Source: an uncultured Bacilli bacterium | GTDB taxonomy: Bacteria > Bacillota_I > Bacilli_A > RF39 > UBA660 | Assembly (NCBI GenBank): GCA_934091015.1 | Contig: CAKOKM010000001.1 | Location: 1-59,587, forward strand | Direction: 5' to 3' | Length of the DNA: 59,587 nt | Part shown: positions 2,668 through 17,943 of the stretch, piece after piece | How positions within the stretch are numbered: the stretch's first letter is position 1 | Layout of the letters: each line of letters starts with the position of its first letter | Notes under the pieces: generated by a model | The model's database searches: none | What the model was told of the DNA's origin: nothing | What the model saw: only the letters and a program-made list of their open reading frames with translations | Position numbers and translations under genes: made by a program

Positions 2668-2696
2668 TTGACAAACTATTCATAATTTTATATTAT
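2668..2696 (+). promoter_or_regulatory. Sigma-A type promoter of a candidate sRNA
   Basis: TTGACA (2668-2673), exact 17-nt spacer, TATTAT (2691-2696). No protein ORF follows before a terminator. Confidence 0.6.
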
Positions 2697-2762
2697 TAAA
2701 TAGGTAAGGTAATAAACCTTACTGATCCTCTAACGATTCTTGTTAGAGTGTATCAACCAAAA

Positions 2763-2772
2763 CCCCCTGAAG
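2763..2772 (+). other. att core copy A (attL-type junction), CCCCCTGAAG
   Basis: The same core recurs at 18135-18143, 19573-19582 and 37562-37570, each time directly 5' of a different terminator hairpin. Confidence 0.65.
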
Positions 2773-2803
2773 AGGACATGATTCATTATGTCCTCATTTT
2801 TTT
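2772..2803 (+). terminator. Intrinsic terminator
   Basis: Stem GAGGACAT / ATGTCCTC with an 8-nt loop, followed by A and T7. Confidence 0.75.
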
Positions 2804-2851
2804 GCCCTAAATTAAAGGAGTTGCGAAGTTTTGAAATTTCTAAAATAAGTT

Positions 2852-2890
2852 TTAGGCGACATTTAGGCGACATTTTTGAAAATTAGGCGT
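2852..2890 (+). repeat. Arm-type direct repeats TTAGGCGACA (two full copies plus TTAGGCGT), left arm of element 1
   Basis: Copies at 2852-2861, 2863-2872 and 2883-2890. The identical 10-mer occurs three times next to the integrase gene at 18007-18070. Confidence 0.65.
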
Positions 2891-2946
2891 AATTAGAGGA
2901 TGTTTTGTGGTAAGAAATTAATAAAAAATAATAGTAATAAAAATGC

Positions 2947-3005
2947 TAATTCAAAATCAGTACTTCCATATTTTAGAATCTGTTATACTAATATTGAAGG
3001 CGGTG
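2947..3005 (+). promoter_or_regulatory. Recurrent leader motif copy A (TAATTCAAAATCAGTAC...)
   Basis: One of five related leaders in element 1, placed directly upstream of an RBS and start codon (here the sirtuin gene). Confidence 0.4.
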
Positions 3006-3728
3006 ATGTGTATGGATAATAATTTAAAAAAATTGAAAGAAATAATAGATAATTCAAATAACATAGTATTTTTTGGTGGTGCAGGAGTATCTACTGCTAG
3101 TGGACTTCGTGATTTTAAAGGTGAAAATGGCTTATATAAAGATAAGTATGACAAACCAACTGAATATTATTTAAGTGCAGGTTGCTTTTATAGAGAGTCA
3201 GAAGTGTTTTATAAGTTTTATAAAGAAAATATGAATACATTAAACGTTGAACCTAACATAATTCATTATTATTTAACTGAATTAGAAAAACTTGGAAAAT
3301 TAAAGGCAATAGTAACTCAAAATATAGATGGCTTACATCAAAAAGCAGGAAGCAAAAATGTTTTAGAAGTACATGGTACAACTTATAAAAACCATTGTAT
3401 TAAATGTGGAAAAGAATACAGTGCAGAATTTGTTTTTAATAGTGTTGGCGTGCCTAAATGTTCATGTGGTGGAACTATCAAACCCGATGTAGTTCTATAT
3501 GGTGAGATGCTTCCAGAAGCATATTCTCTTGCAGTATCGTATATTTATAAAGCAGAAACTTTAATAGTAGCTGGAACTTCACTTACTGTTGAACCTGCTT
3601 GTGGCTTAGTAAAAATATTTAATGGAAAGAATCTAGTTATTATTAATGATACTCCTACTCAATATGATAACCTTGCTACTTTAGTTATTCATAGGAAAAT
3701 GGAAGATGTTATTAGGGAAATTCATTAA
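3006..3728 (+). CDS. cobB: Sir2-family NAD-dependent protein deacylase (sirtuin)
   Basis: GGAGVSTASGLRDF NAD-binding motif, QNIDGLH, catalytic H in EVHGT, and a Zn ribbon CxxC...CxC (CIKCGKEY...CSCGG). The ORF track starts at 2943; ATG 3006 (or 3012) fits the usual sirtuin N-terminus. Confidence 0.85.
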   Translation: MCMDNNLKKLKEIIDNSNNIVFFGGAGVSTASGLRDFKGENGLYKDKYDKPTEYYLSAGCFYRESEVFYKFYKENMNTLNVEPNIIHYYLTELEKLGKLKAIVTQNIDGLHQKAGSKNVLEVHGTTYKNHCIKCGKEYSAEFVFNSVGVPKCSCGGTIKPDVVLYGEMLPEAYSLAVSYIYKAETLIVAGTSLTVEPACGLVKIFNGKNLVIINDTPTQYDNLATLVIHRKMEDVIREIH

Positions 3729-3744
3729 ATAGCAAGCATTGAAG

Positions 3745-3774
3745 CAGAGATTGAAATAAATATCTCTGTTTTTA
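3745..3774 (+). terminator. Intrinsic terminator after the sirtuin gene
   Basis: Stem CAGAGAT / ATCTCTG followed by a T-run. Confidence 0.7.
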
Positions 3775-3925
3775 TTTATTTTCGGGGTTGGCAGTTCAAA
3801 GAATTTATGTTACATTAAGACTACAATCAAAAACTTAAAAAACAAAAAAGAAATATCTATCATCTATACACAGTAATATATCTATATATTCAATTAGGCA
3901 ACAGTAATCTGTTGCTTTTTCTATG

Positions 3926-3987
3926 CGATTCAGAGTCAGTCATAATCATTTCTAAAATGTGGTTAAATAATTATGGAGGTTATAAAA
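3926..3987 (+). promoter_or_regulatory. Recurrent leader motif copy B (CGATTCAGAGTCAGTCA...)
   Basis: Diverged copy of the TAATTCAAAGTCAGTAC leader, ending in a GGAGG RBS and ATG 3988. Confidence 0.35.
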
Positions 3988-4296
3988 ATGAAGAAAATAG
4001 AAAAACTTATGTTAAAAGAAGAAGATCAAATTCTTAAAGACACACTTGCAATATGTTTAGCGAAATTAATAGGATTACACTACAAATATTACAAGAATAA
4101 GAAATTTGATACATTTGACCAATACTGCGATAGTTATACCTGTTTCACTATCTTGTCAGAAAAGGAAAAGGTAGAACTATACCATACTGTTGATAAGATT
4201 ATGGAGCAAGAATATAATCTGTTCTTCGCACACTATGAGTTAGGTAAACCAATTTATTTAGTGGATGTTTCAGGAAAGGATGATATTGTATGCTAA
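3988..4296 (+). CDS. Hypothetical protein
   Basis: ORF 3973-4296. The GGAGG at 3975-3979 favours ATG 3988. No recognisable motif. Confidence 0.55.
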   Translation: MKKIEKLMLKEEDQILKDTLAICLAKLIGLHYKYYKNKKFDTFDQYCDSYTCFTILSEKEKVELYHTVDKIMEQEYNLFFAHYELGKPIYLVDVSGKDDIVC

Positions 4297-4574
4297 ATAC
4301 CTCAATGCTAGTTGGAAAAATAAATGAAATAATAAATGAAGGTCAAGGTAAAATTCTATTATCACTAGCAGTACAAAGACCTTATAAAAATGAAAATGGT
4401 TCTTATGATGTTGACTTAATTCCTTGCACTTTATCTGGCACAATTTCTAATTCAATTGAAAAATACTGCAATATTGGTGATGTTGTAGGAGTTCGAGGAA
4501 GTTTAAGAGTTATTGGAACTAACTTAACTTTATCAGCAGATAAAGTTACATTCTTAAGTACAAAGAAGGTTTAA
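4290..4574 (+). CDS. Short SSB-like OB-fold protein
   Basis: 94 aa. The pattern N-x-V-x-L-VG-K-I ... DLIPCTL ... GDVVGVRGSLR resembles the OB core of bacterial and phage single-stranded DNA-binding proteins. Overlaps the preceding gene by 7 nt. Confidence 0.5.
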   Translation: MLNTSMLVGKINEIINEGQGKILLSLAVQRPYKNENGSYDVDLIPCTLSGTISNSIEKYCNIGDVVGVRGSLRVIGTNLTLSADKVTFLSTKKV

Positions 4575-4585
4575 GGTGATTAATT

Positions 4586-5026
4586 ATGGAGTTAGTTTAT
4601 AGTACTGGTGGTCGTGAGAAGTATTACAATGCTATTAAAGTTGGTGATTGTGCTTGCAGGGCTATTGCTAATGGTACAGGAATGGATTATAAAGAAGTTT
4701 ATGATTTAATTAATAGTTATGCAGAAAGAGAACATATAAGTAAAAGAAAGAAAACAAAGTCAAATGCTAGAAATGGTGTTCATAAGGAAACCATTTATAA
4801 GTTACTTACTGATTTAGGTTGGAAATGGGTACCAACAATGTTTATCGGTAAAGGTTGTCAAGTTCATTTGAATGAAAAAGAACTACCTACTGGTACATTA
4901 ATAGTTAGTGTCTCAAAACATTTAACCTGTGTTAAAGATAGAAAATTATATGACACCTATGATTGTACTAGAAATGGTACTAGATGTGTTTATGGCTACT
5001 ATATCAAGGAGGCATATGATTTATGA
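4586..5026 (+). CDS. Hypothetical protein with a possible Cys/His/Asp papain-like signature
   Basis: 146 aa. DCACRAIA near the N-terminus, then SKHLTCVKD...YDTYD near the C-terminus. Recalls a family common on ICEs and phages. Not verified. Confidence 0.5.
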   Translation: MELVYSTGGREKYYNAIKVGDCACRAIANGTGMDYKEVYDLINSYAEREHISKRKKTKSNARNGVHKETIYKLLTDLGWKWVPTMFIGKGCQVHLNEKELPTGTLIVSVSKHLTCVKDRKLYDTYDCTRNGTRCVYGYYIKEAYDL

Positions 5027-5379
5027 AAGGCGTAGATAGATTAAAAAAATTAGCAGAGGGACAAGAAGATCCCTCTCTACTTAGGGTTATAGAGTATTTA
5101 GTTAATATAGATGAGTTAAATGAAATGTATCTTAATGTTGATAAGTCGTTAAAAAGTATGGTTGATTATATAAAAGATATGGCTAAGAAGTTATCAAAAG
5201 ATGGATACTGCTGGGTTGAAGATACTACTGTTTATGAATGGGCGGTTAATTATTGGAGTAAATCAGATGAAGAATTAGGTATTAAAAAAATTACACCTAC
5301 TCCTAAAACTAAAGCTGAAGTAACACGTGATGAGGTTATACCAGAAGTAAAACAGGTAGGCCAACTATCGTTATTCTAG
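5023..5379 (+). CDS. PcfK-like protein
   Basis: 118 aa. KSLKSMVDYIKDMAKK...VEDTTVYEWAVNYW...DEELGI and the C-terminal QLSLF match my recollection of the PcfK-like family. Sits directly upstream of a PcfJ-like gene, as on conjugative elements. Confidence 0.55.
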   Translation: MKGVDRLKKLAEGQEDPSLLRVIEYLVNIDELNEMYLNVDKSLKSMVDYIKDMAKKLSKDGYCWVEDTTVYEWAVNYWSKSDEELGIKKITPTPKTKAEVTRDEVIPEVKQVGQLSLF

Positions 5380-5392
5380 AGGTGGTTAAATT

Positions 5393-6823
5393 ATGGGGTA
5401 TATCAATAAAGAATTACAGAACCTTATAAAATCCATGGATAAAACATTTTCAGTTGGTCTAGGTGTACGAAAATGGTTGAGACAAAGTATCTACCCTAAA
5501 CATAATCTTATACTTAAGTCAAAAGAAGGTTATTACTGTACCAATTGTAAGAAAAGTTTTCATTCAACTGTTAAAGTTGGAGAATATACTATATGCCCCA
5601 AATGTAAGCAAGAACTATTAGTTAGAATGAATACATTGCAGCGTCAAGTTTTCAAAGATGATTTTAGAATACTTGAATTTATTGATGGTTACTTTGTACT
5701 AAGAGGGTTTGAGGTACTATCACTATATAATAATCATCAAGTATCACATCAGTATCAAGAGTACCAAAGATTAGTTATATCAAAGGATAAAATATATCTA
5801 CTTGCATCTGACGTTCTAAAAAACTATATGGGATATCTTTCTGTTAGTCATAATGAAAAGCATACTAGTTGGAGATTACTAGATAGTCAGTATAGATGGT
5901 ATATGTCTAGAGGGAGTATCTACTGGGGAGAATTAGAGAGGGATACTTATGGTACTGTATATCACTACTGCCCTATACAGAGGGTACTACTATCATATAC
6001 TGGAGATACTAGTATAGAGATATTACTTCAAAGAATATTAAATAACCCTACATCATTTGAATTGTTATCTAAATTAGAACTTACTAATCTTGCAATTGAT
6101 TGTGATGAGTTTACAAATAAGGGTTCATTTGAAAATAGATTTGGCGTTACTAAAGATTATCTTCCTTTTATGACTAAGAACAATTTGAATTATAATGAAC
6201 TGGAAGTTCTGCAAGTAATTAAACATAAGAATATAAGTATCGTTAAGAAGTTAAGTCAATTAAGCAATTTTAAAGAACTATCTAATTATTTAGATATGGA
6301 AAAAGCGCTATCTAATGGACTTAATGAAACTAATGAACATTTATATAAGGACTACCTTGACTTTGCTAAGCGCTTACACCTGAATATGAAAGACAAAAGA
6401 GTTTTATACCCTACTGACATAGTTAAATCACACGATGAACTTATGCACCAAGTAGAAACTATTGAAAACCAAGAAATCATTGAAAAAATTAAAATCAGGT
6501 ATGAAGAATTAAAGCAATTAAGTTATCACGATGATAAGTATGTGGTTTTCCCTGTTCCAAGTTTGTCAGATTTAATTCGTGAATCCGAAGTACAAAATAT
6601 ATGTATTAGAAGTTACAACGAAAGGTATGCCAATGGAGAGACCAATTTATTTTTTATGAGAAGTATAAAAAATATGAGCAAACCGCTTGTAGCTATTGAA
6701 GTTAAGGATGGAAAAATTTTGCAAAGTCGTGGAAAAAGAAATAATGATCCTACTAAAATGCAGAAAGCATTTATAAACAAGTGGGAAAATGAAATTTTGA
6801 AAGGAAGTGCGTTATATGCCTAG
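5393..6823 (+). CDS. PcfJ-like protein
   Basis: 476 aa. N-terminal Cys4 (CTNC...CPKC). C-terminal block LIRESEVQNICIRSYNERY...NLFFMRS...PLVAIEV...ILQSRGKRNN resembles the PcfJ domain. Paired with the PcfK-like gene. Confidence 0.5.
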   Translation: MGYINKELQNLIKSMDKTFSVGLGVRKWLRQSIYPKHNLILKSKEGYYCTNCKKSFHSTVKVGEYTICPKCKQELLVRMNTLQRQVFKDDFRILEFIDGYFVLRGFEVLSLYNNHQVSHQYQEYQRLVISKDKIYLLASDVLKNYMGYLSVSHNEKHTSWRLLDSQYRWYMSRGSIYWGELERDTYGTVYHYCPIQRVLLSYTGDTSIEILLQRILNNPTSFELLSKLELTNLAIDCDEFTNKGSFENRFGVTKDYLPFMTKNNLNYNELEVLQVIKHKNISIVKKLSQLSNFKELSNYLDMEKALSNGLNETNEHLYKDYLDFAKRLHLNMKDKRVLYPTDIVKSHDELMHQVETIENQEIIEKIKIRYEELKQLSYHDDKYVVFPVPSLSDLIRESEVQNICIRSYNERYANGETNLFFMRSIKNMSKPLVAIEVKDGKILQSRGKRNNDPTKMQKAFINKWENEILKGSALYA

Positions 6824-7094
6824 GTTTGATATTGGAAAATTTGTTATGACTAAAGGTGTAGCGAGTGAAATAGATAACAACCCTAATTATAAAATGGAAC
6901 TACTTGATTGCTTAACAAGGTATTTGAATTGTGATTGGGGTAATTTATGTGATACTGATAAATTATTAAATGAAGATGCTATTAAAAATGATGAAAGGAT
7001 ACTAGCAAGGTATAACACTTCGTGTGGTGATATTTATATCATAACAGAAAGGGATAGAAGTTATACTACTATGCTGTATGTGGGTGAATATTAA
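6816..7094 (+). CDS. Conserved plasmid/ICE-associated hypothetical protein
   Basis: About 92 aa. DWG...ILARY...IYIITERDRSYTTMLYVGEY resembles a small family I recall from plasmids and ICEs. AAGGAAG RBS 8 nt before ATG 6816. Confidence 0.5.
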   Translation: MPRFDIGKFVMTKGVASEIDNNPNYKMELLDCLTRYLNCDWGNLCDTDKLLNEDAIKNDERILARYNTSCGDIYIITERDRSYTTMLYVGEY

Positions 7095-7315
7095 TGAATA
7101 TATATGAGAAAACCGCCAAGAATATTAAATATTATCGTAAGTTAAAGGGATTAACACAGGATGAAGTTGCTGAATTAACAGGCTATTCGCCAGAATATAT
7201 AAGAAGAATTGAATCTCCACATGGAAAGAAGAAAGGTTTTACATTAAAGGCAGTATACGTAATATCTTTAGCATTGGAAGTACCTATTGAGGAACTATTT
7301 AATGACCGAACATAA
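7094..7315 (+). CDS. XRE-family HTH transcriptional regulator
   Basis: 73 aa. The HTH_3 pattern IKYYRKLKGLTQDEVAELTGYSPEYIRRIE. Confidence 0.75.
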   Translation: MNIYEKTAKNIKYYRKLKGLTQDEVAELTGYSPEYIRRIESPHGKKKGFTLKAVYVISLALEVPIEELFNDRT

Positions 7316-7385
7316 ATAGCTTAATTCAAAGTCAGTACATCCACTTTTTAAAGTATGCTATGTTATTTATTGAAAGGAGGTAAAT
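7301..7385 (+). repeat. Direct repeat copy C (gene tail plus TAATTCAAAGTCAGTAC leader)
   Basis: AATGACCGAACATAAATAGCTTAATTCAAAGTCAGTACATCC... is nearly identical over its first ~41 nt to 8039-8079 and related through to the RBS. Confidence 0.8.
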
Positions 7386-8057
7386 ATGAAATCATTAAAA
7401 ACAGGATTTAATGAATTAGACAAGTTAATAAATGGGCTGAATGGCGGTGATTTAATTGGAATTGCTGCTCGACGTGGTATGTGTAAAACATCTTTTGGAA
7501 TAAACCTAATAAACAACGTATCTAAACAGACTAATAAAAGGATATTATATTTCAATTTGGATTCATTAAAAGAAAACAATTTATTTAAAAAAATTATCAA
7601 CAATAATGTTGAGGTAATAGATGATGTTAGTCTAATTGAAGATATTAAGAACAAATGTGAAGAAGTAAATAAAAAAGATATTTCATTGGTTGTTATTGAC
7701 TATCTACAATTGATTACTAATAACAAAAAATATAAAAGTAAGTTAGCTAAAACACTTGATGAATTGCCAATATTGAAAGTTCTAGCATTAGAGTTAAATA
7801 TTCCAATAATTATTATTTCACGTCTATCAAAGATTATAGATAAAAGAGAATATAAAAAACCTACTCTATCTGATGCAAGGGCTGTTGGAATAATACAAGC
7901 CTGTGATAAGATTATTTACTTATATAGTGATGATTATTATAATGATGAACCTATAAAGGAACTTGAACTAATTGTTGCCAAAAATCGTGGTGGAAGTTTA
8001 GGAACAATTAAAATAGAATTCAATCTAGAGAATGGTTTAATGACCGAACATAAATAG
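7386..8057 (+). CDS. DnaB-like helicase C-terminal-domain ATPase (RecA-fold)
   Basis: 223 aa. GFNELDKLINGLNGGDLIGIAARRGMCKTSF (Walker A region) and LVVIDYLQLI (Walker B), typical of the DnaB C-terminal domain. No N-terminal DnaB domain. Confidence 0.7.
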   Translation: MKSLKTGFNELDKLINGLNGGDLIGIAARRGMCKTSFGINLINNVSKQTNKRILYFNLDSLKENNLFKKIINNNVEVIDDVSLIEDIKNKCEEVNKKDISLVVIDYLQLITNNKKYKSKLAKTLDELPILKVLALELNIPIIIISRLSKIIDKREYKKPTLSDARAVGIIQACDKIIYLYSDDYYNDEPIKELELIVAKNRGGSLGTIKIEFNLENGLMTEHK

Positions 8058-8125
8058 TTTAATTCAAAGTCAGTACATCAATATTTTTAGATGTGCTATG
8101 CTTATACCTGAAAGGAGATATGTTT
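8039..8125 (+). repeat. Direct repeat copy D (gene tail plus TAATTCAAAGTCAGTAC leader)
   Basis: AATGACCGAACATAAATAGTTTAATTCAAAGTCAGTACATCA..., partner of 7301-7385. The shared segment encodes NDRT-stop in one gene and MTEHK-stop in the other, in different frames. Confidence 0.8.
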
Positions 8126-8665
8126 ATGAAAAAAGTTGATTTTGACAGGTACAAAGACGCTTGCTATTACATGACACCTGACGAATTAAAAAAATATGTT
8201 GATAATACTATTTCAATATGGGGAGATATCAACAAACAGAATATAAAACAAATTGAAGCAGTATTTGAAAATGATGTTTATGTGCTGCTTAATGATGGAA
8301 AACTTTATGAAAATGGTAAGCAAATCCTAGATGGTATTGCTGAATTATGGTGCATGAATATTCATTACTTATTTGTTATTACTAAAGAAAACTATGTATA
8401 TTCAATCCAAGATAACATATTCAATAATTATATTGGTAATACTAAATATAAGAAGATAGTTAAATCAGGATTAGATTTGTTAGCATTAACTTATGATAAG
8501 AATGTTAAATCGCTGACATCATATCCGGAGTTTATAGGAATAGAACCTGAAAACTTTATTGATGTAGATGATATATCAATTACTGGTGAACTTGGTACAC
8601 CATATGTTATTAAAAATGGTAAAAAGATTCCATTGTATATCAGTGAGTATAATGAGGAAGAATAA
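8126..8665 (+). CDS. Hypothetical protein
   Basis: ORF 8093-8665. The AAAGGAGA RBS favours ATG 8126. No recognisable catalytic motif. Confidence 0.55.
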   Translation: MKKVDFDRYKDACYYMTPDELKKYVDNTISIWGDINKQNIKQIEAVFENDVYVLLNDGKLYENGKQILDGIAELWCMNIHYLFVITKENYVYSIQDNIFNNYIGNTKYKKIVKSGLDLLALTYDKNVKSLTSYPEFIGIEPENFIDVDDISITGELGTPYVIKNGKKIPLYISEYNEEE

Positions 8666-8686
8666 TTCTTCCTTTTATTTTGCTCT

Positions 8687-8707
8687 AATTCTGAATCAGG
8701 TGCTACA
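8687..8707 (+). promoter_or_regulatory. Recurrent leader motif copy E (TAATTCTGAATCAGGTGCTAC), degenerate
   Basis: Follows a terminator hairpin (8655-8679) and precedes the serine recombinase gene. Confidence 0.3.
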
Positions 8708-8865
8708 GTTGGTGCTGATAAGTTAAAATTATAGTGTGTGGGAAAACAATTGTTTTTATGTACACAAATAAATACTATTATTTTAGTATTAAAACATTGA
8801 TTTTTTTGGTAAAAATGTGTACAAAAATAGAAGAAGGTTTTCTAATACATTGGGAGGAATTAAAA

Positions 8866-9468
8866 ATGAAATATCTTTATATGAGAGCAAGTACAAACGA
8901 AACAAAACAATCATTACAAAGACAAGAAAAATTTGGTCGGGATAATGCCATTCCAGAAAGTAATTGGTTTAGAGAATATGCCTCTGGTGCAAAGGATAAT
9001 AGAATTGAATTAAATAAGTTATTATCTATAGTTGGTGAATCAGATGAAATATATTGTGTAGATCCTAGTCGTCTAACTAGAAGTTTAAAATATTTACTTG
9101 AATTAGTTGAATTTGCAAAAGAAAAGAAAATAAAATTAGTACTAGGTGACTTTATACTTGATTGTTCTGGTGAAATATCAGTATTCACTCAAGGGCAACT
9201 AATGATGTTGGGATTAATAAATGAAATGCAAAGACTAATGATAGTAGAAGCTGTAAGAGAGGGACTTGCATCAAGTAAAGAAAGAGGAATTATAGGTGGT
9301 AGACCAAGAACAACCATTGATAATATACCAGAAAGTTTTTATAAATATTATGCAATGTATAAAAATAATCAAATAACTAAGGTTGAATTTAGCAAGATAT
9401 CTGGATTGTCTAGAAGTTCAATATACAAATATATAAATATTATAGAAAATAAAAAAGATGAAATTTGA
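8866..9468 (+). CDS. Small serine recombinase (resolvase/invertase family)
   Basis: N-terminus MKYLYMRASTNETKQSLQRQ (YxRxST..Q..Q catalytic-serine motif), SGAKDNR, DPSRLTRS, and a C-terminal HTH (ISGLSRSSIYKYI). GGGAGG RBS before ATG 8866; the ORF-track start 8734 is unlikely. Confidence 0.8.
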   Translation: MKYLYMRASTNETKQSLQRQEKFGRDNAIPESNWFREYASGAKDNRIELNKLLSIVGESDEIYCVDPSRLTRSLKYLLELVEFAKEKKIKLVLGDFILDCSGEISVFTQGQLMMLGLINEMQRLMIVEAVREGLASSKERGIIGGRPRTTIDNIPESFYKYYAMYKNNQITKVEFSKISGLSRSSIYKYINIIENKKDEI

Positions 9469-9530
9469 ATCATCTTTTTTTGTAAAAAAACAAACTCAAT
9501 CAACGCTAATTATTATTATAGTGGATTAAA

Positions 9531-9890
9531 TTATTTACTCTTATCTGCTAGTTCTTCAATAAGTTTTAATACTGTGTTCTTATCGCTTTCTGATAAGGTA
9601 TAATACTTTTCTAGTTCATTAGAACGACCACACAAGTAATCAATACTACAATTTAAAACTTCAGCTAATCTATAAGCAACTGGCAAAGATGGAATTCTGA
9701 TTGGAATATTTGTATCTTTACCGTGTTTATCCTTTTTAGTTTGCTCCATTCCTTGTATGGTTGAGTTTGTAACTCCGACAAGTTGTCCTAGTTTAACTTG
9801 TGAGTATCCTTTCTTTTCTCTTAATTTTTTAACATTTGATAGGTCAATTTTTTCTTTATTTAACTCAAAATCATCTTTGAATAGCCTCAT
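9531..9890 (-). CDS. XRE-family repressor-like HTH protein
   Basis: 119 aa. LREKKGYSQVKLGQLVGVTNSTIQGME HTH_3 pattern. Divergent from the cargo operon, as expected for a CI-like regulator. Confidence 0.75.
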   Translation of the reverse strand: MRLFKDDFELNKEKIDLSNVKKLREKKGYSQVKLGQLVGVTNSTIQGMEQTKKDKHGKDTNIPIRIPSLPVAYRLAEVLNCSIDYLCGRSNELEKYYTLSESDKNTVLKLIEELADKSK

Positions 9891-9933
9891 TATATCACCT
9901 AATAATATTTTAGGTTAAAAAAGTTCAATTAAA

Positions 9934-9985
9934 TCTTACACGGTGTATGACAAATGTTTGAAAATATGATATAATGATCTTACAC
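9934..9985 (+). promoter_or_regulatory. Promoter flanked by two TCTTACAC operator-like repeats
   Basis: ATGACA (9947-9952), 17 nt, TATAAT (9970-9975). TCTTACAC at 9934-9941 and 9978-9985. The first is part of the palindrome ACAC-G-GTGT. Confidence 0.55.
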
Positions 9986-10003
9986 ATAGTAGGAGGTAAT
10001 TAT

Positions 10004-10642
10004 ATGAATAAAGATTCAATAAATGAAAGATTGATAAATGAAATCATTCCACAAATTAAAAAAGTAAAAGATTTAAAAGGAGAATATAGGGACAATAACC
10101 AGAAATTTGGTTCTAAAATGCTTGGTAATATTATAGCAAATACTATAAGGGATTATATTCAAAACATAATTAATTATTATAATTTAGATTATTCAGTTTC
10201 TTTAAATAATGCTTTTATAGATGGTTGTCCTATTGAATGGGATTTAATAATATTTGATAAGGCATTATTACCTAAAAACAACATAATTGACCCAACTAAA
10301 GTGAAAGCAGTTATTGAGTTTAAAACTAGTGGTACTATTGATGTATTATACAATAAGAGATCTAAAGAAGAATTTTTAGAGCAAACATTTGGGAAAGCAT
10401 TTGAAACTGTTAAAAAAATGGAACAAGAAGTACACCACAAGATTAATTTTGGATATATTACATTTTCAACAGACATTGATTGGTTTAAGGCAACAAAAGA
10501 TTATTTTGATAAACACAACGGAAAGGAAAATACAGCATTTGCGTTTCTTGATGATAGAGAACTAGAAAAAGGTCATATTGTTGCAGTAGAAGGATGTGCT
10601 GAATTTGAAAAGTATTTATTTAACTTGTTGGGTGATATGTAA
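10004..10642 (+). CDS. Hypothetical protein with a PD-(D/E)XK-like signature
   Basis: AGGAGG RBS before ATG 10004. EWDLIIFD followed about 30 aa later by VIEFKTSG fits a D...ExK nuclease core. Unverified. Confidence 0.4.
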   Translation: MNKDSINERLINEIIPQIKKVKDLKGEYRDNNQKFGSKMLGNIIANTIRDYIQNIINYYNLDYSVSLNNAFIDGCPIEWDLIIFDKALLPKNNIIDPTKVKAVIEFKTSGTIDVLYNKRSKEEFLEQTFGKAFETVKKMEQEVHHKINFGYITFSTDIDWFKATKDYFDKHNGKENTAFAFLDDRELEKGHIVAVEGCAEFEKYLFNLLGDM

Positions 10643-11586
10643 TGAAAAAGTTATTATGTGTAGCAATTGCTTTTGCTACGCTACTAATGGTTAATGGCTG
10701 TAAAAGTAAAAATAATAATGATGTATTTGAAATGTTAAATAAGGAGCAGAATACAAAAAAAGGCCAAGTAATTTTATCTGGTAAAAGTGCTTCTTATTCA
10801 AAAACCAGCGATGTCAAATGTGATGAATTAAAAAATGCTATTGTTGCCTATAATAATTATTTTATTACGGCTGATGAAACAAGCATGAAAACTAATAAAA
10901 TATATAAGTATAATTTTCAGTTATTATTTGAAAATGATAAGAATTGTATATTAGTGCATTCTGAAGACAATAAAGATTTTAAAAGTTTACTTGGATTTGG
11001 AAATAATTCGGCTTCAAATGAAACCATAATTGCCATGACATCACAAATGTCGGATAAACCAGTACGTTACTATGGTGGTGATCCGCAATTGCCAATTTAT
11101 TATTCTGTTAATCTTGGTGAGCCATTACTTTCTACTGCATTCATTTCATATTATACAATTGATTCATTTTCAAATTATAGGTTAAACAAATCTGATGAGT
11201 TAGTACAAAATCCTAGCGTAATTTATCAATTAGTAAATGATAGGGGAATTATTAGTAATAATAAAATATATAAAGTTGACCTAGTAAAGAGTTATCTTTT
11301 TATTTATGATGCAAAATTAACCAATGAAATAATTTTTGAACCTTTAGAAGATGAAGAGACAATATTGAAAGTTTTTGAATATGCAATTATTACTGATAAA
11401 AGAGTTTATGTTTATGGGATGAGTAACGATAATTGCTTACATTATGTAGATGGAAAGTGTGAATATGGATATGTGGTTAATGAAGATTTATCAAATAGAA
11501 TTGATGATATTGTATTTGTTAACAGTAATGAAATAGTTTTTAAAGATGGAAGTGCATACTTATATAATGCTTGGGGCGAAGAATGA
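10642..11586 (+). CDS. Putative lipoprotein
   Basis: The signal peptide MKKLLCVAIAFATLLMVNGC ends in a lipobox Cys. 314 aa. Confidence 0.65.
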   Translation: MKKLLCVAIAFATLLMVNGCKSKNNNDVFEMLNKEQNTKKGQVILSGKSASYSKTSDVKCDELKNAIVAYNNYFITADETSMKTNKIYKYNFQLLFENDKNCILVHSEDNKDFKSLLGFGNNSASNETIIAMTSQMSDKPVRYYGGDPQLPIYYSVNLGEPLLSTAFISYYTIDSFSNYRLNKSDELVQNPSVIYQLVNDRGIISNNKIYKVDLVKSYLFIYDAKLTNEIIFEPLEDEETILKVFEYAIITDKRVYVYGMSNDNCLHYVDGKCEYGYVVNEDLSNRIDDIVFVNSNEIVFKDGSAYLYNAWGEE

Positions 11587-12689
11587 AAAAAATATATATT
11601 ATAATTGGAATTGCAATTTTATTTATAGGCCTTAGTGCTATTACATCAAAACATGAAGTAAGTATTAATAAAAGGTTAGAAGATTTGGGATTTGTATTAT
11701 ATGATGAAATTATATATGTAAAGCACGAAAAGAACTCAACAACAGAGATAGATTTAAAGAATAATATATGTGTAAGTAATAAATCAAATTATAAGAGTGA
11801 ATTAGAAATAGATAATGAAATAGTTATATATTATAACTTTATTAATAAAAGGGTATATGCTATCAATACTGTTTATTCATATGGTGAATATGAACGGTTT
11901 TTTTCGATAAACTATTATGATGAAAAAAGTGATAATTTAGTTATGAATAATCAAATGCAGGAATTTGTTTATAAATGTAAAGATTATATCGGAGATTATC
12001 AACCAGAAGAAGCTAAAATTATTAATCAAAATAAAATTGAATTTAATGATTTTAAAAATGAAAAGTTAATCGAATTTGTAAATTATTCGGAAATAGAAAG
12101 GAAAATAACATCTTTCTCTTTTGACTTATCAAATACTAATAAACTATATATGCTTGCTGAAACTAATAAAATATTTAGTGTGGACATTAATGATAACTCA
12201 TATACAAGTAAGATATTATTTGGTCAAGAAGTAAAATATATTAACAACAACAACCTTATTTATGATAATTACTATGTACCGATTAATTCTGAATCAAATG
12301 TTTATAATTATGATTGCTTAAATTGTGATAACAATTCATCGCTTATGTTTGACAATAAAAGTGAATATACCTCAAATTGTACTAACTTAGATGAGTTAGA
12401 GTATCATTATATTAATGATGAATATTTTGAAATATTGTTTAATGATTTAACTTTAATAGTAGATTCTGAAAATGGTTCATTCGTTAAATTATCATTATTA
12501 GAGAATGAGAAAATTCTTAGTATAAACAATAGTATAATCAAGACAAATTATGCTTTCTATGACATTAATGGAAATAAATTGGAAGATGTATCAATGATTT
12601 ATGACAATATTTTAGATATTGCCTCATATAAAAATAATTTATATTTATTAGGCAGAGATAACATTATATATAAATATGTAAGTATTTAG
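11583..12689 (+). CDS. Membrane-anchored hypothetical protein
   Basis: ATGA start/stop overlap with the lipoprotein gene. N-terminal TM helix KKIYIIIGIAILFIGLSAI. Asn-rich extracytoplasmic part. Confidence 0.6.
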   Translation: MKKIYIIIGIAILFIGLSAITSKHEVSINKRLEDLGFVLYDEIIYVKHEKNSTTEIDLKNNICVSNKSNYKSELEIDNEIVIYYNFINKRVYAINTVYSYGEYERFFSINYYDEKSDNLVMNNQMQEFVYKCKDYIGDYQPEEAKIINQNKIEFNDFKNEKLIEFVNYSEIERKITSFSFDLSNTNKLYMLAETNKIFSVDINDNSYTSKILFGQEVKYINNNNLIYDNYYVPINSESNVYNYDCLNCDNNSSLMFDNKSEYTSNCTNLDELEYHYINDEYFEILFNDLTLIVDSENGSFVKLSLLENEKILSINNSIIKTNYAFYDINGNKLEDVSMIYDNILDIASYKNNLYLLGRDNIIYKYVSI

Positions 12690-12696
12690 AAGGTAT

Positions 12697-12726
12697 AAAA
12701 CCGATAGATTAAGTTCTATCGGTTTT
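12697..12726. terminator. Bidirectional hairpin terminator between convergent genes
   Basis: AAAACCGATAG / CTATCGGTTTT stem flanked by A-run and T-run. Confidence 0.65.
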
Positions 12727-13794
12727 GTTTATTTCGGCATCCAAACTTTGCTTAAGAATTTTAAGATGTGTTTTACTTTCTTTATCTTTAGGTTTAAGGT
12801 TATTAACTTCGTTGATTAAATCGTTATTCTTACTTCTATGGATATTTTTCTTTAGATAATCATATATTTCTCGCTTTGTTCTTTCATAATTCATGACACT
12901 TTTATGCCTATTTACCTTTTGGCATTCATCGCAAAGAAGTTTATTGAAAGTTGGTTTGTAGTCAATTGAAACTTTAACCTCTTTGCTTAAAGTAGCCAAA
13001 CATCTATGACATTTCGTATATGCTATCCATGTATGCACTTCTCCATTATCATACTCATAATAAGTGATAGATGAAGCAATATTATTAATTAAAGTTTCAT
13101 AAGCAAAAGTAAACAAATTCGTTACATACCTTATTGGAATAATATTCTCATCATCCCAGTTTCTAGTTACATCTGTTTTGTATCTACCAAGACTAGCACG
13201 ACCAATGATATTATCTAAAAATGAAACTATTTTAATAAGAATATCCTCTTTAACATCATCACTATCAATTTCAAGAGATTTATATAATGTTTCATTTTCT
13301 TCATAGTGCTCACAAATATCAGAATATGCGAAATTTATTATATAAATCATAATAGCATTATTAACCAGTTCATGAACGGATATACTGTTTTCCAAGTTCT
13401 CACTATTATTTCTTTCTAAAGAGTAGATTGGAATATTATATTGTGATACAAAGTCTAAGCATAGAGGTATAACTTTCTCTATGTTTTTATTTATGTCTTT
13501 ATTACTAACAAAATCACATGTTAATTCCACACATCCTCCATTCTTAAAAACTGGCTTTAAGTTATCTTTAAACAACTTATATAATTCTTTCCCTAGCATT
13601 AATACATCTTTAAAAAAATCATATTGTTCCACTTCACCATAAGATAGATTTTTTGTATCATACTTTTCATTTTTTATATAGCAGAATTCCCCATCATAAT
13701 ATGTAGTAAAAGTCCAATTATCATAAAACTTACCAAAACAGACTTTGCAATTCTCACTAACATGGTTTTCATTGTAAATGATTTTATATTTCAT
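12709..13794 (-). CDS. Hypothetical Cys-rich protein
   Basis: 361 aa. CxxC pairs near both ends (CKVC; CHRC...CDEC) suggest Zn binding. No other motif recognised. Confidence 0.55.
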   Translation of the reverse strand: MKYKIIYNENHVSENCKVCFGKFYDNWTFTTYYDGEFCYIKNEKYDTKNLSYGEVEQYDFFKDVLMLGKELYKLFKDNLKPVFKNGGCVELTCDFVSNKDINKNIEKVIPLCLDFVSQYNIPIYSLERNNSENLENSISVHELVNNAIMIYIINFAYSDICEHYEENETLYKSLEIDSDDVKEDILIKIVSFLDNIIGRASLGRYKTDVTRNWDDENIIPIRYVTNLFTFAYETLINNIASSITYYEYDNGEVHTWIAYTKCHRCLATLSKEVKVSIDYKPTFNKLLCDECQKVNRHKSVMNYERTKREIYDYLKKNIHRSKNNDLINEVNNLKPKDKESKTHLKILKQSLDAEINKTDRT

Positions 13795-13979
13795 ATATAT
13801 GCTCCTCTGATTTTCCTCTGATATTTCCTTTTTTGTAGTATAACATAAAATGGACTATAATGGAACCACAAAAGCAAAAACGCGCCTTAATGAATTCAAC
13901 TTTGTTTTTGAAAAGAAAGTAAAGGTGATAAATATGAAAATGTAAATGTTAAATAAATGGTTTATAGAAAGGAGAGCAA

Positions 13980-15050
13980 ATGAGCAAGTCAAAGGAATTA
14001 CAAAGACTTATATCAGAATTAGAAAATGATAATAAGGAAAAGCATAAAATTCTTCCTACTGATATCAAGAGTTTGGATTTTATTCTTGGTGGAGGTATTG
14101 AGTTAGGAAGCAAAGTTCAATTTGTTGCAGAGTCATCTTGTGGTAAAAGCACTATTGCTCTACAAATTAGCAAAAATCTATGTAAAAAGAATTATAATGT
14201 CTTGTATGTTGACACTGAAAATTCCATAACAAAGGTTATGCTAAATGCAGTAGGAGTTGCAGAGTATTACAACAACGAAAGTGATTCTTCTGGAGAATTT
14301 GTATTGTTAAAAGAAAGTGATTTTAATACGGTAAGTGATAAACTAGATATATGTCTAAAATCTAAATACTTTCATTTAATAATCATTGATTCACTGGCTT
14401 CACTTGTTAGCAATTGTTATACTGATATTTATTCTGTTAAGGATGTTAAATCTTTAACCAATAATAATACTAACTTTGAAAGTAGACCGCTGAATTTATT
14501 CATCAATAAATATTCAAATTTAGCAAATAAATATAATGTTGCTATATTGTATATTAATCAGTTCAGAAATAAGGTTGATCCTAAAAACGGGACAATTCTT
14601 AAGGAATTTGGAAACAAAATTGTCAAATATAATAGTGACATCATAGTTCGTATTAAAAAAGATAAAGATTATATCTATCAAGATGATAATGATATCTATA
14701 TTACTGATGCTAAAGTAGTCGGTGGAAAACCTCAAACCCATGCAAAACTAATATTATCATTAGAAAAAAGTAATAAAATGCTGAGTGAAACTTCAACAAA
14801 TACCTATCTTAAATATGGTTACGGTATAGACGAAATATTAGACGATACTTCTGATAAGGTTAGAAACGGTACGATAAAGAAAAATGGTAAGTATTATTAT
14901 TTACAAGATAGTAATGAAAAATACGATGGCTTTATAAGCTTAGTAAACAATATTACACTAACAAATAAAAAGACGAAGTTGTCTAACGAAGATACTGTAA
15001 GTCTTGAAGATGGTCTATTAAATATTGATTTTATTACTCCAAATAGTTAA
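13980..15050 (+). CDS. RecA/RadA-like ATPase
   Basis: LDFILGGGIELGSKVQFVAESSCGKST (Walker A), HLIIIDSLASL (Walker B) and ILYINQFR. RecA-fold core with a ~120-aa C-terminal extension. Confidence 0.65.
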   Translation: MSKSKELQRLISELENDNKEKHKILPTDIKSLDFILGGGIELGSKVQFVAESSCGKSTIALQISKNLCKKNYNVLYVDTENSITKVMLNAVGVAEYYNNESDSSGEFVLLKESDFNTVSDKLDICLKSKYFHLIIIDSLASLVSNCYTDIYSVKDVKSLTNNNTNFESRPLNLFINKYSNLANKYNVAILYINQFRNKVDPKNGTILKEFGNKIVKYNSDIIVRIKKDKDYIYQDDNDIYITDAKVVGGKPQTHAKLILSLEKSNKMLSETSTNTYLKYGYGIDEILDDTSDKVRNGTIKKNGKYYYLQDSNEKYDGFISLVNNITLTNKKTKLSNEDTVSLEDGLLNIDFITPNS

Positions 15051-15191
15051 AGAACTGGATAAGATATTCTTATCGTGTAGTCCAAGCTGCACTTACAGCC
15101 ATAAAACTTGGAAGAAGACTAATAGAAAAAATGATAGTTACTAACTTAATAAAAAATACTAAATTAAAATAAAGTTAGTGAGAGAGCAATT

Positions 15192-15231
15192 CTCAACCGG
15201 TTAAGTAGTTAATAATGTCTAACCGGTTGAG
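15192..15231. promoter_or_regulatory. Perfect 12-bp inverted repeat CTCAACCGGTTA-N16-TAACCGGTTGAG
   Basis: Lies 10 nt upstream of the AGGAGG RBS of ORF 15250. Candidate operator, recombination site or 5' UTR hairpin. Confidence 0.5.
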
Positions 15232-15249
15232 GATATATTAGGAGGAAAA

Positions 15250-15759
15250 ATGATGTACGGATATTTTTATGTTAAAACATATAAAAATCCATATATTGAG
15301 CATATGAATATATACAACATTATAAAACGTACTAAAGCATATTTAAACGAAAATTACGATTTTGATTGGATACTTTATGACTACGTTAAGAAACCATCAA
15401 AACTTAATTTTGATAGTTTTATAGATATGTTGTTGTGGTATATCAATGCTAATGATACTTTAGTTGTTCTGAGTTTATTTCAACTTGGAAATACTAAAGT
15501 TCAAATATATAAAACACTTGAAATAATGAGAACCAAACAAGTTAGGTTAATTGTTAAAAAGTGGGAGGTAGATATTTCCAGTACTATGAAAAAAGTAATG
15601 GAATTATCAGAAGATGATATTGCTATATATGAAAATTTACAATTATATAGGAATCATTGTTCAGACTATACAGTTGAAGATAATTTGTATAGAAAATTAT
15701 CAGGTTACAAATTAAATGAAAAATATGTTAGTAATGAAACTATACGTAGAAAAGTCTAG
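15250..15759 (+). CDS. Resolvase-N-domain-like protein lacking the catalytic serine
   Basis: 169 aa. YGYFYVKT replaces the YxRVST motif. DTLVVLSLFQLGNT...QVRLIV parallels the DxLvVxxLDRLGR...gvxl block of serine recombinases but without the Arg residues. Confidence 0.35.
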   Translation: MMYGYFYVKTYKNPYIEHMNIYNIIKRTKAYLNENYDFDWILYDYVKKPSKLNFDSFIDMLLWYINANDTLVVLSLFQLGNTKVQIYKTLEIMRTKQVRLIVKKWEVDISSTMKKVMELSEDDIAIYENLQLYRNHCSDYTVEDNLYRKLSGYKLNEKYVSNETIRRKV

Positions 15760-15790
15760 TTGCAACTAATTAAAAAAATAGGAGGATATT

Positions 15791-16390
15791 ATGAAGAAAA
15801 TAGAAAATACAAATGAAGATAAAGAGAACATTAGGGTACTTAATTTGCAAGTTGAACATTTAAAAAAGCAAATGTTTTCTTACAAAATAAGTGAACTTAA
15901 ACAACTTAATCAAGAAATAAGAAATTTAATTCTTGATTGTACATATCTTACAATGAGATATGATATTGTTATGAACTTAACAGAATCGGAACTTTATTCT
16001 AGTATTAATGGTTCATCAATTGAAGAATTTGTTGGTAACAGTATATGTGTTATAAATAGGTTTAGAAATGTGATTTCTACTAACTTGTGTTCATTTACTG
16101 TTACTGATGTATATGATAATAAACAATATGTAGAAATGATGCAAGAGTGTCTTGAAAACTTGATGGTACTACTTCACCAGAAGAAATTGTTAAAGTTCAA
16201 TATGGATGATTGGATAGATGCAGGTCATCCGCTAGGTGAAGCAGAAATTGCTATTGAAGAGTTTTCTGTTGCATTAGATTATACAAGAGATATTGTAATT
16301 AGTATTTCAGAGTCTTATTGGAACAGGTTTCAATGGTGCCGTGCACTAGTTGAAAGTATAAATAAAGAAGAACACTTTGGTACTATTTAA
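15791..16390 (+). CDS. Hypothetical protein
   Basis: 199-aa ORF with a GGAGG RBS. Predicted helical. No motif recognised. Confidence 0.55.
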   Translation: MKKIENTNEDKENIRVLNLQVEHLKKQMFSYKISELKQLNQEIRNLILDCTYLTMRYDIVMNLTESELYSSINGSSIEEFVGNSICVINRFRNVISTNLCSFTVTDVYDNKQYVEMMQECLENLMVLLHQKKLLKFNMDDWIDAGHPLGEAEIAIEEFSVALDYTRDIVISISESYWNRFQWCRALVESINKEEHFGTI

Positions 16391-16480
16391 ATTAATAATA
16401 TACAAATTAAAGTTATTTAGATAAAACGTAAAATCAGGTTCAGTATTATCAATAACATTGAAAAGTTATAATATATATAT

Positions 16481-16508
16481 GAGTATTTGTATTCCGGTAC
16501 AAATACTC
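16481..16508 (+). promoter_or_regulatory. 11-bp perfect hairpin/IR upstream of xis-int
   Basis: GAGTATTTGTA-TTCCGG-TACAAATACTC, just downstream of a TATAAT box (16467-16472) and 55 nt before the Xis-like start. Confidence 0.45.
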
Positions 16509-16563
16509 TCCACTATCGTGGAGCTTCAGTGGATTTACATCTTGTATATGAGGAGATGAAAAA

Positions 16564-16809
16564 ATGAGTTACAAAACACTAAGTGAAGTTATTTCAAAAC
16601 CTTGGGTTGATACAGATGACATAATGAAAGTTGCTTGTTGTGGTAAAAATTCTGCAATTAAAATAAGGCTAGAAATAGAAAATCAAATATTACAAAGTGG
16701 AAAGAAACTTCCTTTATCTAGCAGAAAGTTTGTACCAACAAAACTTTTATTAGAGTATTTAGGTATGGATGTGGATTATATTTGTAAAATGGCAGAAAAA
16801 TTAGGATAG
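16564..16809 (+). CDS. Excisionase-like small DNA-binding protein (DUF3173-type)
   Basis: 81 aa, immediately upstream of the integrase. The pattern DIMKVA..GKNSAIKIR..IENQILQSGKKLP...FVPTKLLLEYLG resembles the small proteins that precede integrases on streptococcal IMEs and ICEs. Confidence 0.5.
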   Translation: MSYKTLSEVISKPWVDTDDIMKVACCGKNSAIKIRLEIENQILQSGKKLPLSSRKFVPTKLLLEYLGMDVDYICKMAEKLG

Positions 16810-16821
16810 GAAGTGTATCTT

Positions 16822-17943
16822 ATGGCGGTAAGACAAGTTAAAGAAAATGAACGAACTAAAGATGGTCGCTCATGGATATTTGAAGATAGATATAAAGATA
16901 TCAAAGGAATTGTTAAAATGCACAAGTCTAAAAAGTTTTTAACAAAGAAAGAAGCTTTAAAGGCTGAAAGAGAGTTTTTAAATGAACTTGAAAACATAAA
17001 CAATAACATTCATTCAGATGATATAACTTTTAAAGAATTATGTGATTTGCATTTTGAATATCAAAAAGACAAAGTTAAAGTTACAACATTAAAAAATTAT
17101 GTTAAAAGAAGACAACATTTAGAAGTATTTGATAACATAAAGTTAAATGAACTTAATATAAGACATTTTGAGAATTGGAAAAAGGAAATGAATAATCTGG
17201 ATTTAGCTACTAGAACTAAAAATGACCTTTATAAGTATTTAAGAAGCGTTTTGCATTATGGTAGTAAATGGTATAACTATAACTTTAACGATATATTAAA
17301 CAAAATGACTAATTTCAATAATCCTAACGAATTGGAAAAGGAAATGTTATTTTGGGAAAAAGAAGAATTTGATAAGTTTTTAAGTGTAGAAACTGATATC
17401 AAATTTAGAGCATTATTTGAAACCCTTTATTATTGTGGTCTTAGATCTGGAGAAGTTAGAGGTTTAACTTGGACTGATATTGATTTCAAAAATAAAAAAC
17501 TTACTGTTAATAAGAATGTGGTTATTAACTTTGAAGGAAATAAATATTTAATAACTACACCAAAAACTAAAAGTAGTTATAGAACAATACCTATTCCTAA
17601 CGTTCTTTTAGAGGATTTAAAGATTTTGAGAAAGTATCAAGATAACTATTATGAGTTTAATAATGACTGGTTTGTATTTGGTTCTTTTGAACCTTTAGGA
17701 AAGGCGGTTATGCGAGAACGAAAGAATAAGAATTGTAAGTTAGCGGGTGTTAAACAAATTAGAATACACGATTTTAGGCATAGTTGTGCATCATTACTCA
17801 TTAATAATGGTGCTAATATAACTATGGTTGCCAAATATCTAGGTCATACTAAAATAGATGAGACTTTAAATACTTATTCTCATATGTTTAAAAGCAAACT
17901 AGAAAATATTGTTGATACGATAAACAAACTTAATGAGCAGTAA
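16822..17943 (+). CDS. int: Tyrosine site-specific integrase
   Basis: C-terminal catalytic motifs GLRSGEVRGL (Arg I), HDFRHSCASLLI (H-x-x-R) and LGHTKIDETLNTYSH (catalytic Tyr). N-terminal arm-binding-type domain. Confidence 0.9.
   Translation: MAVRQVKENERTKDGRSWIFEDRYKDIKGIVKMHKSKKFLTKKEALKAEREFLNELENINNNIHSDDITFKELCDLHFEYQKDKVKVTTLKNYVKRRQHLEVFDNIKLNELNIRHFENWKKEMNNLDLATRTKNDLYKYLRSVLHYGSKWYNYNFNDILNKMTNFNNPNELEKEMLFWEKEEFDKFLSVETDIKFRALFETLYYCGLRSGEVRGLTWTDIDFKNKKLTVNKNVVINFEGNKYLITTPKTKSSYRTIPIPNVLLEDLKILRKYQDNYYEFNNDWFVFGSFEPLGKAVMRERKNKNCKLAGVKQIRIHDFRHSCASLLINNGANITMVAKYLGHTKIDETLNTYSHMFKSKLENIVDTINKLNEQ

Follow-up and report, generated by a model that had tools for sequence, protein, structure and literature searches.

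A small RNA gene downstream of recG as a probable attachment site for tandem integrative elements in uncultured gut Bacilli

We analysed a stretch of 59,587 nucleotides from an uncultured Bacilli bacterium (contig CAKOKM010000001.1 of assembly GCA_934091015.1, positions 1 to 59,587 of the forward strand; hereafter, the window), whose genome is ~1.3 Mb in size with a G+C content of 25%. The window opens with recG (28–2016), followed by a gene encoding a DUF975 protein (2049–2657). The subject of this report, a small RNA (sRNA)-like gene at 2668–2803, lies 3' of both genes. Its features, with the evidence for each, are as follows.

2668–2696, plus strand: sigma-70-type promoter, with TTGACA at 2668–2673, a 17-nt spacer and TATTAT at 2691–2696 (score 11/12)
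2703–2723, plus strand: hairpin 1, GGUAAGGU/ACCUUACU, 8 bp (folding and covariation)
2728–2748, plus strand: hairpin 2, CUCUAAC/GUUAGAG, 7 bp (folding and covariation)
2753–2771, plus strand: invariant tract UCAACCAAAACCCCCUGAA, predicted to be unpaired, the candidate functional core, or seed (genus alignment)
2763–2771, plus strand: attachment (att) core CCCCCTGAA, which is junction A and the attL of element 1 (homology between genomes ends there)
2772–2803, plus strand: intrinsic terminator with a 10-bp GC-containing stem (2772–2795) and a T-run to 2803, supplied by element 1

The promoter is the top-scoring promoter-like site between positions 2500 and 3000, and would place the transcription start near 2703. 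Hairpin 2 is followed by the stretch UGUAUCAACCAAAACCCCCUGAA, which runs to 2771. The 101-nt RNA has a predicted folding energy of -33.9 kcal/mol (z = -6.0 relative to shuffled sequences), with the C-rich stretch unpaired. An earlier reading of the window from its letters (the original prediction) had placed at this locus a promoter close to consensus, a pair of hairpins, a C-rich unpaired tract and a strong terminator, and we find each of these in place. Its claim that the locus contains no open reading frame (ORF) also stands, in that no ORF is conserved. In the relative G006, a 1-nt insertion disrupts the single candidate frame (TTG/ATG-TTA-GAG-TGT-ATC...), and the substitutions that it would have to accommodate are compensatory changes in hairpin 2; for these two reasons, we exclude a coding function.

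We measured the distribution of the gene using a covariance model built from the two hairpins and the tract. The sRNA is present as a single copy in 21 of the 24 genomes of the genus, and in 11 of the 11 that are of high quality. In the order as a whole, matches came from 116 of 151 genomes, representing 74 of 87 genera, and almost all of them belong to one family. Within the class, the sRNA was detected in 9 of 13 members of this family and in 0 of 137 genomes drawn from 25 other families. The sRNA is immediately preceded by recG in 105 loci; the DUF975 gene is an insertion between recG and the sRNA in this genus and some others, and leaves the sRNA undisturbed. One family of uncultured gut Bacilli with small genomes thus carries the sRNA as a single-copy core gene just downstream of recG. 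BLAST comparison with relatives showed that the 5' 110 nt are conserved throughout the genus, and that homology stops exactly after CCCCCTGAA. The tract UCAACCAAAACCCCCUGAA is invariant in the genus alignment and in most of the family-level matches. Exact matches to the 19-mer, TCAACCAAAACCCCCTGAA, were obtained in at least 120 stretches from the genomes of other species, compared with ~4 estimated by chance; among the matches listed, all are gut metagenome-assembled genomes (MAGs) labelled Bacilli, Tenericutes, Mollicutes or "Mycoplasma".

We next looked for constraint at the level of RNA, using 37 distinct sequences from ~30 genera. In this set, 96.9% of stem cells are paired and 14 of 15 base pairs show double-sided, compensatory changes, values that none of 500 shuffles attained. 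All eight pairs of hairpin 1 change on both sides; in hairpin 2, compensatory changes are seen in six of seven pairs, and pairing is maintained in 98.4% of cells. The flanking signals are conserved as well. A promoter-like site is found at the expected relative position in 148 of 152 orthologous loci, compared with 40 of 152 shuffled controls, and 104 of these loci contain TTGACA. A hairpin with a T-run begins 0–3 nt from the core in 144 of 144 loci, and these comprise 80 distinct terminator hairpins. In 121 distinct full-length RNAs, with a median length of 103 nt, the mean probability that the C5 run is unpaired is 0.98–0.99. Together, these patterns suggest that the RNA is transcribed. The proposal that an unannotated sRNA-like gene lies here is borne out by the covariation, by the conservation of promoter and terminator, and by the absence of a match in Rfam. 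Covariation in homologous loci of relatives and an Rfam search had been put forward as checks; the former gave the 14 covarying pairs described above, and the latter returned no family at the gathering score.

The comparison with Rfam covered the whole window, and no family was matched at the gathering threshold; a scan for tRNA and transfer-messenger RNA (tmRNA) genes also yielded none. With permissive E-values, only two families gave sub-threshold matches at the locus. SraC/RyeA (RF00101) scored 28.7 bits against a gathering threshold of 37, on the minus strand, in a match that rests on the element 1 terminator, and LhrC (RF00616) scored 22.1 bits (E = 0.47) against a threshold of 110. Neither match recurs in eight orthologous loci that carry other terminators, indicating that both are chance similarities that depend on the terminator brought by the element. 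The RsaE/RoxS model (RF01820) gave no match at E ≤ 10, and the locus has one C-run only. We also ruled out that the locus is the genome's copy of signal recognition particle (SRP) RNA or 6S RNA, since both are found elsewhere in the genome above their cut-offs (SRP RNA at C23:11396-11494 and 6S RNA at C5:46810-46984).

Downstream of the sRNA, the att core divides the window into a tandem array of elements. The core CCCCCTGAA recurs at 18135 and 19573, and as TCCCCTGAA at 37561. Allowing up to one mismatch, the window contains six matches to the core, with 2.4 expected; the three plus-strand copies are each followed by a hairpin, different in each case. The array is composed of the following features.

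2772–18134, plus strand: element 1, ~15.4 kb, encoding Sir2, PcfK/PcfJ-like and DnaB-like proteins, a resolvase, a helix-turn-helix (HTH) repressor, a RecA-like ATPase and a tyrosine integrase (Pfam)
2852–2871, plus strand: two arm-type repeats TTAGGCGAC in the P' arm of element 1 (repeat count)
16813–17943, plus strand: tyrosine integrase of element 1, with Phage_integrase catalytic, SAM-like and arm-binding (Arm-DNA-bind_4) domains
18007–18069, plus strand: three arm-type repeats TTAGGCGAC in the P arm of element 1 (repeat count)
18135–18175, plus strand: junction B, core CCCCCTGAA and a displaced terminator with a 9-bp stem (18144–18165)
18144–19572, plus strand: element 2, a 1.4-kb module with no integrase and two small ORFs (99 and 210 aa) that have no Pfam match
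19573–19609, plus strand: junction C, core and a displaced terminator with a 7-bp stem (19582–19599)
19582–37560, plus strand: element 3, an 18-kb defence island with no integrase, encoding Abi_alpha, two 5-methylcytosine (m5C) methylases with an NgoFVII-type nuclease, helicases and HTH-Fic
37561–37599, plus strand: junction D, degenerate core TCCCCTGAA and a decayed terminator (5-bp stem, 12-nt loop)
37570–46726 (provisional right end), plus strand: element 4, with no integrase, encoding a tandem-HTH regulator, a UvrD-type helicase, Bro-N and an AEP-helicase

The integrase gene of element 1 stops 190 nt before junction B. The repeat TTAGGCGAC occurs seven times in the window, with 0.04 copies expected, and every copy adjoins a junction; copies are present in both arms of element 1 and are distinct from the core, the arrangement of a lambda-type, heterobivalent integration system. 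Homologues of the integrase with 39–75% amino-acid identity are encoded 90–250 nt from the sRNA core in ~25 other species, convergent with the RNA. Hence, the placement of the att core inside the unpaired C-rich tract, as originally predicted, agrees with the break in homology after CCCCCTGAA, with the integrase and with the arm repeats. We observed a short terminator-like hairpin (GAGCAGTAATGCTC and a T-run) that overlaps the integrase stop codon at 17935–17948, and also occurs at 19386–19399; given this overlap, transcripts of the integrase gene probably terminate short of the att core and would not extend into the junction.

The remaining elements lie between cores and lack an integrase, in tandem with the integrase-bearing element 1, as in arrays of cis-mobilizable elements (CIMEs). 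The right end of element 2 duplicates that of element 1 (17919–18143 and 19370–19581, 94–95% identity), and the terminator at its left end heads integrase-bearing elements in other species. Element 2 appears to have arisen by deletion between two different elements, and it retains att cores on both flanks. Element 4 contains arm-like repeats, TTAGGTACA, at 37650 and 37661, and is followed by the arc operon, which starts at 47681. The cargo of elements 2–4 is mostly defence.

Comparison with related genomes revealed the same modules in other arrangements. In G010, element 1 is absent and the sRNA core runs straight into element 2 (97.5% identity). Downstream of element 2 come, in this order, a left end resembling that of element 1 with different cargo, the Fic gene, junction D and element 4. 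The Fic part of element 3 alone is common to the window and G010, and element 4 of the window is matched in G010 and G005 at 96–98% identity. Based on the arrangement in G010, element 1 and most of element 3 are insertions or replacements at the core. Terminators that are displaced in the window also directly abut the sRNA elsewhere: that of junction B in G010, L058, L115, L128 and L156, that of junction C in G006, L097 and L155, and intact versions of that of junction D in G003, G013 and G022. The type of terminator hairpin carried by element 1 heads similar elements in G005, G008 and G020. At nine secondary junctions in other genomes, only (C)CCCCTGAA is common with the sRNA, and a displaced terminator hairpin follows in each case. 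The commonest terminator after the core is GGAGCCGAAAGGCTCC, which also tends toward the far end of arrays; for these two reasons it may be the ancestral terminator. The claim that each integration swaps in an element-borne terminator is thus upheld by a terminator in 144 of 144 loci, by the 80 distinct hairpins and by the polymorphism in G010, and the use of the sRNA as attB with replacement of its terminator is supported.

Two further observations concern the surroundings of the site. In L104 (URWD01000022.1), recG lies downstream of the sRNA core on the opposite strand, which suggests an inversion at the att site. Separately, many covariance-model matches lie less than 250 nt from a contig end (e.g. 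G053:C5:1-81, G083:C13:2-82, G111:C68:38-111 and G071:C4:4-74); MAG assemblies tend to break at the sRNA site, as expected of a hot spot for strain-variable islands.

We conclude, from the gene anatomy, covariation, distribution, junction structure and presence/absence polymorphism examined in silico, that 2668–2803 is very probably a real, independently transcribed sRNA gene of ~100 nt that serves as attB for arm-binding tyrosine integrases, and that a tandem array has been built at this site. The crossover core would be the last 8–9 bases of the invariant tract, (C)CCCCTGAA. In the mechanism that we propose, a lambda-type tyrosine integrase would recombine attP, composed of a P arm, the core and a P' arm starting with the terminator, with the core of the sRNA. 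The promoter, the two hairpins and the invariant tract of the RNA would remain complete, and the P' arm of the element would replace all sequence 3' of the core. This arm begins in every case with a terminator hairpin and a U-run, and would provide the sRNA with a new terminator; the previous terminator would move to the far (right) junction. Repeated integrations, combined with deletions that remove integrases, could then generate the tandem array, with element 1 and its intact integrase followed by elements 2–4. Element 1 may still be mobile. This is a known integration mechanism acting on a new RNA target; the mechanism itself is not new.

Several points weigh against this interpretation or against a role for the tract in base pairing. 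The expression of the sRNA and the positions of its 5' and 3' ends are read from the conservation of promoter and terminator. The alignment used to score covariation was fitted to the structure of the model, which favours that structure; however, sliding the partners by 1–3 columns in the same alignment reduced pairing to 26–45%, and these controls argue that the fitting is not the cause of the signal. The reconstructed attP of element 1, i.e. its excised circular form, was absent from the viral and metagenome contigs searched, in an exact-match search of assemblies that is a weak test, and the 19-mer site was found on no viral contig searched. Since neither an excised form nor a site-bearing viral contig was found, the current mobility of element 1 is unproven. 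With respect to base pairing, we predicted targets from exact complementary k-mers, from duplex energies on start regions and from a whole-genome duplex scan, and none of these outperformed shuffled seeds. Among ~1,230 start regions, 81 scored ≤-12 kcal/mol, compared with 37–149 for 20 shuffled seeds. A G5 Shine-Dalgarno sequence precedes only ~20 of 806 long ORFs, and the best target candidates are accessory genes. A search of 100 family genomes for a conserved complementary 13-mer pattern returned only the sRNA gene itself and, in a few genera, a multi-copy RNA family that is described below. The top genome-wide "targets" correspond to the antisense strand of that family, and we rejected them because transcription of the family most likely yields RNA of the same sense as the sRNA. 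Lastly, 19 invariant bases exceed what an anti-Shine-Dalgarno seed would need, which hints at a longer or different partner.

Other readings of the locus account for parts of these data. The constant place of the RNA directly after recG in 105 loci, and the presence of three hairpins in a row, would suit a cis-acting element, either a leader or attenuator of the downstream gene or a 3' untranslated region or terminator cluster of recG or DUF975. We consider this very unlikely: the RNA has its own near-consensus promoter in 148 of 152 loci, the insertion of DUF975 between recG and the RNA in this genus did not disturb the RNA, and the terminator is strong in every case. The terminator sequence is not conserved, and hence no conserved antiterminator is possible. 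Moreover, the first downstream gene is often convergent, and in 59 loci it belongs to 41 unrelated clusters, of which the convergent integrase is the largest; a leader function is excluded because the first downstream genes are unrelated among loci. It is also conceivable that the conservation lies in the DNA only, such that a recombination site is kept or homogenised by mobile elements with no functional RNA involved. Elements bring their own copy of the core, and repeated integration and excision could homogenise CCCCCTGAA. Nonetheless, identity with the element arms extends over just 8–9 bp, and the invariant block reaches 10 nt further 5'; substitutions in the two hairpins are compensatory, a sign of constraint on the RNA; and promoter and terminator are always present. 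This possibility appears extremely remote. A third reading, that of the original prediction, extends the sRNA to the rest of the array: junctions B, C and D would be small transcription units with a promoter, CCCCUGAA and a terminator, giving up to four RNAs with a C-rich motif, and the elements would carry sRNA-like cargo. TTGACT hexamers do exist at 18099 and 19537, 36 nt upstream of the cores at B and C, and both junctions have kept good terminators. However, these hexamers lack a usable -10 element, i.e. one with A2/T6 at a distance of 16–18 nt, and no promoter was found there in the scan; B and C are 95% identical copies of one arm, so they amount to one observation. The hexamers predicted at D (TTGAAA at 37505) differ from the pair that we find there, TTGATA at 37514 with an 18-nt spacer and TATGAT (10/12), 18 nt upstream of the core. 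Promoter-like sites at D are within chance for AT-rich DNA (four found, 2.8 expected), and the hairpin at D is decayed and fails the terminator scan. No promoter-like site was detected within 75 nt of any of the nine secondary junctions in other genomes, and the conservation of the region is explained by arm-type and core-type binding sites for the integrase. The notion that the array encodes up to four RNAs is therefore not sustained and is improbable, and the sRNA is not cargo of the elements, which carry the terminator.

If 2668–2803 is an sRNA gene, as we favour, its function can be approached through the invariant tract. We tentatively suggest that, like the C-rich tracts of other Firmicute sRNAs, it acts as a seed that pairs with G-rich sites resembling the Shine-Dalgarno sequence. 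Alternatively, the 19-nt invariant single strand could be bound by a protein or by a different conserved RNA, such that the sRNA would act as a decoy, sponge or scaffold and not through Shine-Dalgarno pairing; the same partner may be common to the multi-copy RNA family, which has nearly the same 16–17 nt in a terminator arm and loop. The 19 invariant bases are longer than a typical seed, target prediction was no better than with shuffled seeds, and UCACCAAAACCCC(C)UG is present, in the same orientation, in at least 13 copies of the second family in this genome and in copies from a few other genera. We nevertheless regard this alternative as doubtful: no candidate partner was identified, the terminator of the multi-copy family has no C-run in most genera and so its motif is not constant, and C-rich unpaired tracts are an established type of seed in Firmicutes (PMC2790875). 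A more speculative idea, which we think unlikely, is a family-wide regulatory RNA whose 19-nt strand recognises a conserved partner, perhaps also the partner of the multi-copy family, and at which integration is non-neutral, with 80 or more terminators tuning RNA stability or read-through into co-oriented island genes. Were this true, tuning by terminators would couple expression of the defence islands to the promoter of a host RNA.

We compared the locus with known integration systems. At the 3' end of fda in streptococci, integrative elements and CIMEs accrete at att sites of the ICESt1/ICESt3 type. Head-to-tail arrays, internal copies of the att site and integrase-less modules (here, elements 2–4) are features of both systems. 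By contrast, the streptococcal target is the protein-coding gene fda, whereas the target here is an sRNA gene, and no conjugation module is visible in the window. Elements that integrate into tRNA or tmRNA genes restore the 3' end as a rule. The present array is like the islands in those genes in that the target is a small, conserved, structured RNA with a short segment of identity in its 3' part, arm-type sites are present, the displaced 3' portion is supplied by the element so that the gene stays intact, and there are tandem arrays and integrase-less remnants. The differences are that the present target is neither a tRNA nor a tmRNA, that only 8–9 bp are common to target and element, that the terminator alone is replaced and the body of the RNA is spared, and that 80 replacement terminators are in circulation. 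Consistent with an island, we find an integrase near the junction, direct repeats of the core at both ends, a rebuilt RNA 3' end, and precise presence or absence, as seen in G010. Islands and prophages with tyrosine integrases are described in the 3' ends of tRNA and tmRNA (ssrA) genes (Williams 2002, as cited in PMC3603311). Among sRNA genes, ryeB/sdsR (the ryeA/SraC locus) of Salmonella and ryeE/cyaR of E. coli are described as phage attachment sites (Balbontin 2008 and Wassarman 2001, as cited in PMC3603311 and PMC3333887). These differ from the present case in phylum and in RNA, and the present site is used across more than 70 genera. The suggestion that an sRNA gene would be unusual as attB was consequently overstated, given the documented integration at ryeB/sdsR and ryeE/cyaR in the accounts just cited (PMC3603311, PMC3333887). 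As for the RNA itself, C-rich seeds are found in the Firmicute sRNAs RsaE/RoxS and in the UCCC-motif Rsa RNAs of S. aureus (PMC2790875). The present RNA resembles these, and LhrC of Listeria, in its length of ~100 nt, its own promoter and terminator, and an unpaired C-run between hairpin and terminator that could pair with G-rich ribosome-binding sites. It differs in having a single C5 run rather than two or three C-rich motifs, and no target was found here.

The promoter, covarying stems and invariant exposed tract make the sRNA a well-supported candidate RNA family for a large branch of uncultured, reduced-genome gut Bacilli. To our knowledge, no sRNA is known in that branch. The sRNA site is the main docking place for anti-phage islands in these genomes, and hundreds of MAGs could be screened for variable defence islands with the 19-mer and recG as a simple anchor. 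The invariance of the site across more than 70 genera means that the potential host range of a single integrase family is very broad.

Aside from the sRNA, the host genome contains at least 13 copies of an RNA-like unit of ~125 nt that runs from promoter to terminator, some of them in tandems of ~370 nt. These lie on contigs C2, C4, C11, C18, C21, C26, C37, C39 and C95 of the host genome, G000 (e.g. L205:255-410, corresponding to C11:30254-30409, plus strand). The unit consists of an extended -10 element (TGnTAnnAT), the hairpin AUGUAAG/CUUACAU, an invariant AUAAAAUAAAAAAGGAAC, a covarying second hairpin and a terminator. It has no match in Rfam, and is present in several copies in 28 of 60 other genera. 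The extended -10 element and two U.G pairs point to transcription in the sense of the sRNA as the most likely orientation. In this genome and in a few other genera, its terminator has UCACCAAAACCCC(C)UG across the 5' arm and loop, a sequence that is nearly the sRNA tract in the same sense; the link between the two RNA families is weakened by the lack of a C-run in the multi-copy terminators of most genera. On C37, beside two of the multi-copy units, there is a 199-aa ORF (LNGYVVIVDYSKFYESCSHDVIHK...) that by eye looks like the motif region of a reverse transcriptase.

Two minor observations were made during the searches. A match resembling a T-box leader was found at L206:936-1119 (C21:22835-23018, plus strand), with a score of 47 bits (E = 1.6e-8) that is below the Rfam gathering threshold of 93. 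In addition, the one-mismatch variant CAGGTGGTTTTGG occurs as one extra copy per genome in 13 family genomes from many genera (e.g. G159:C32:511-523 and G350:C1:394294-394306), and these copies are probably part of a conserved gene.

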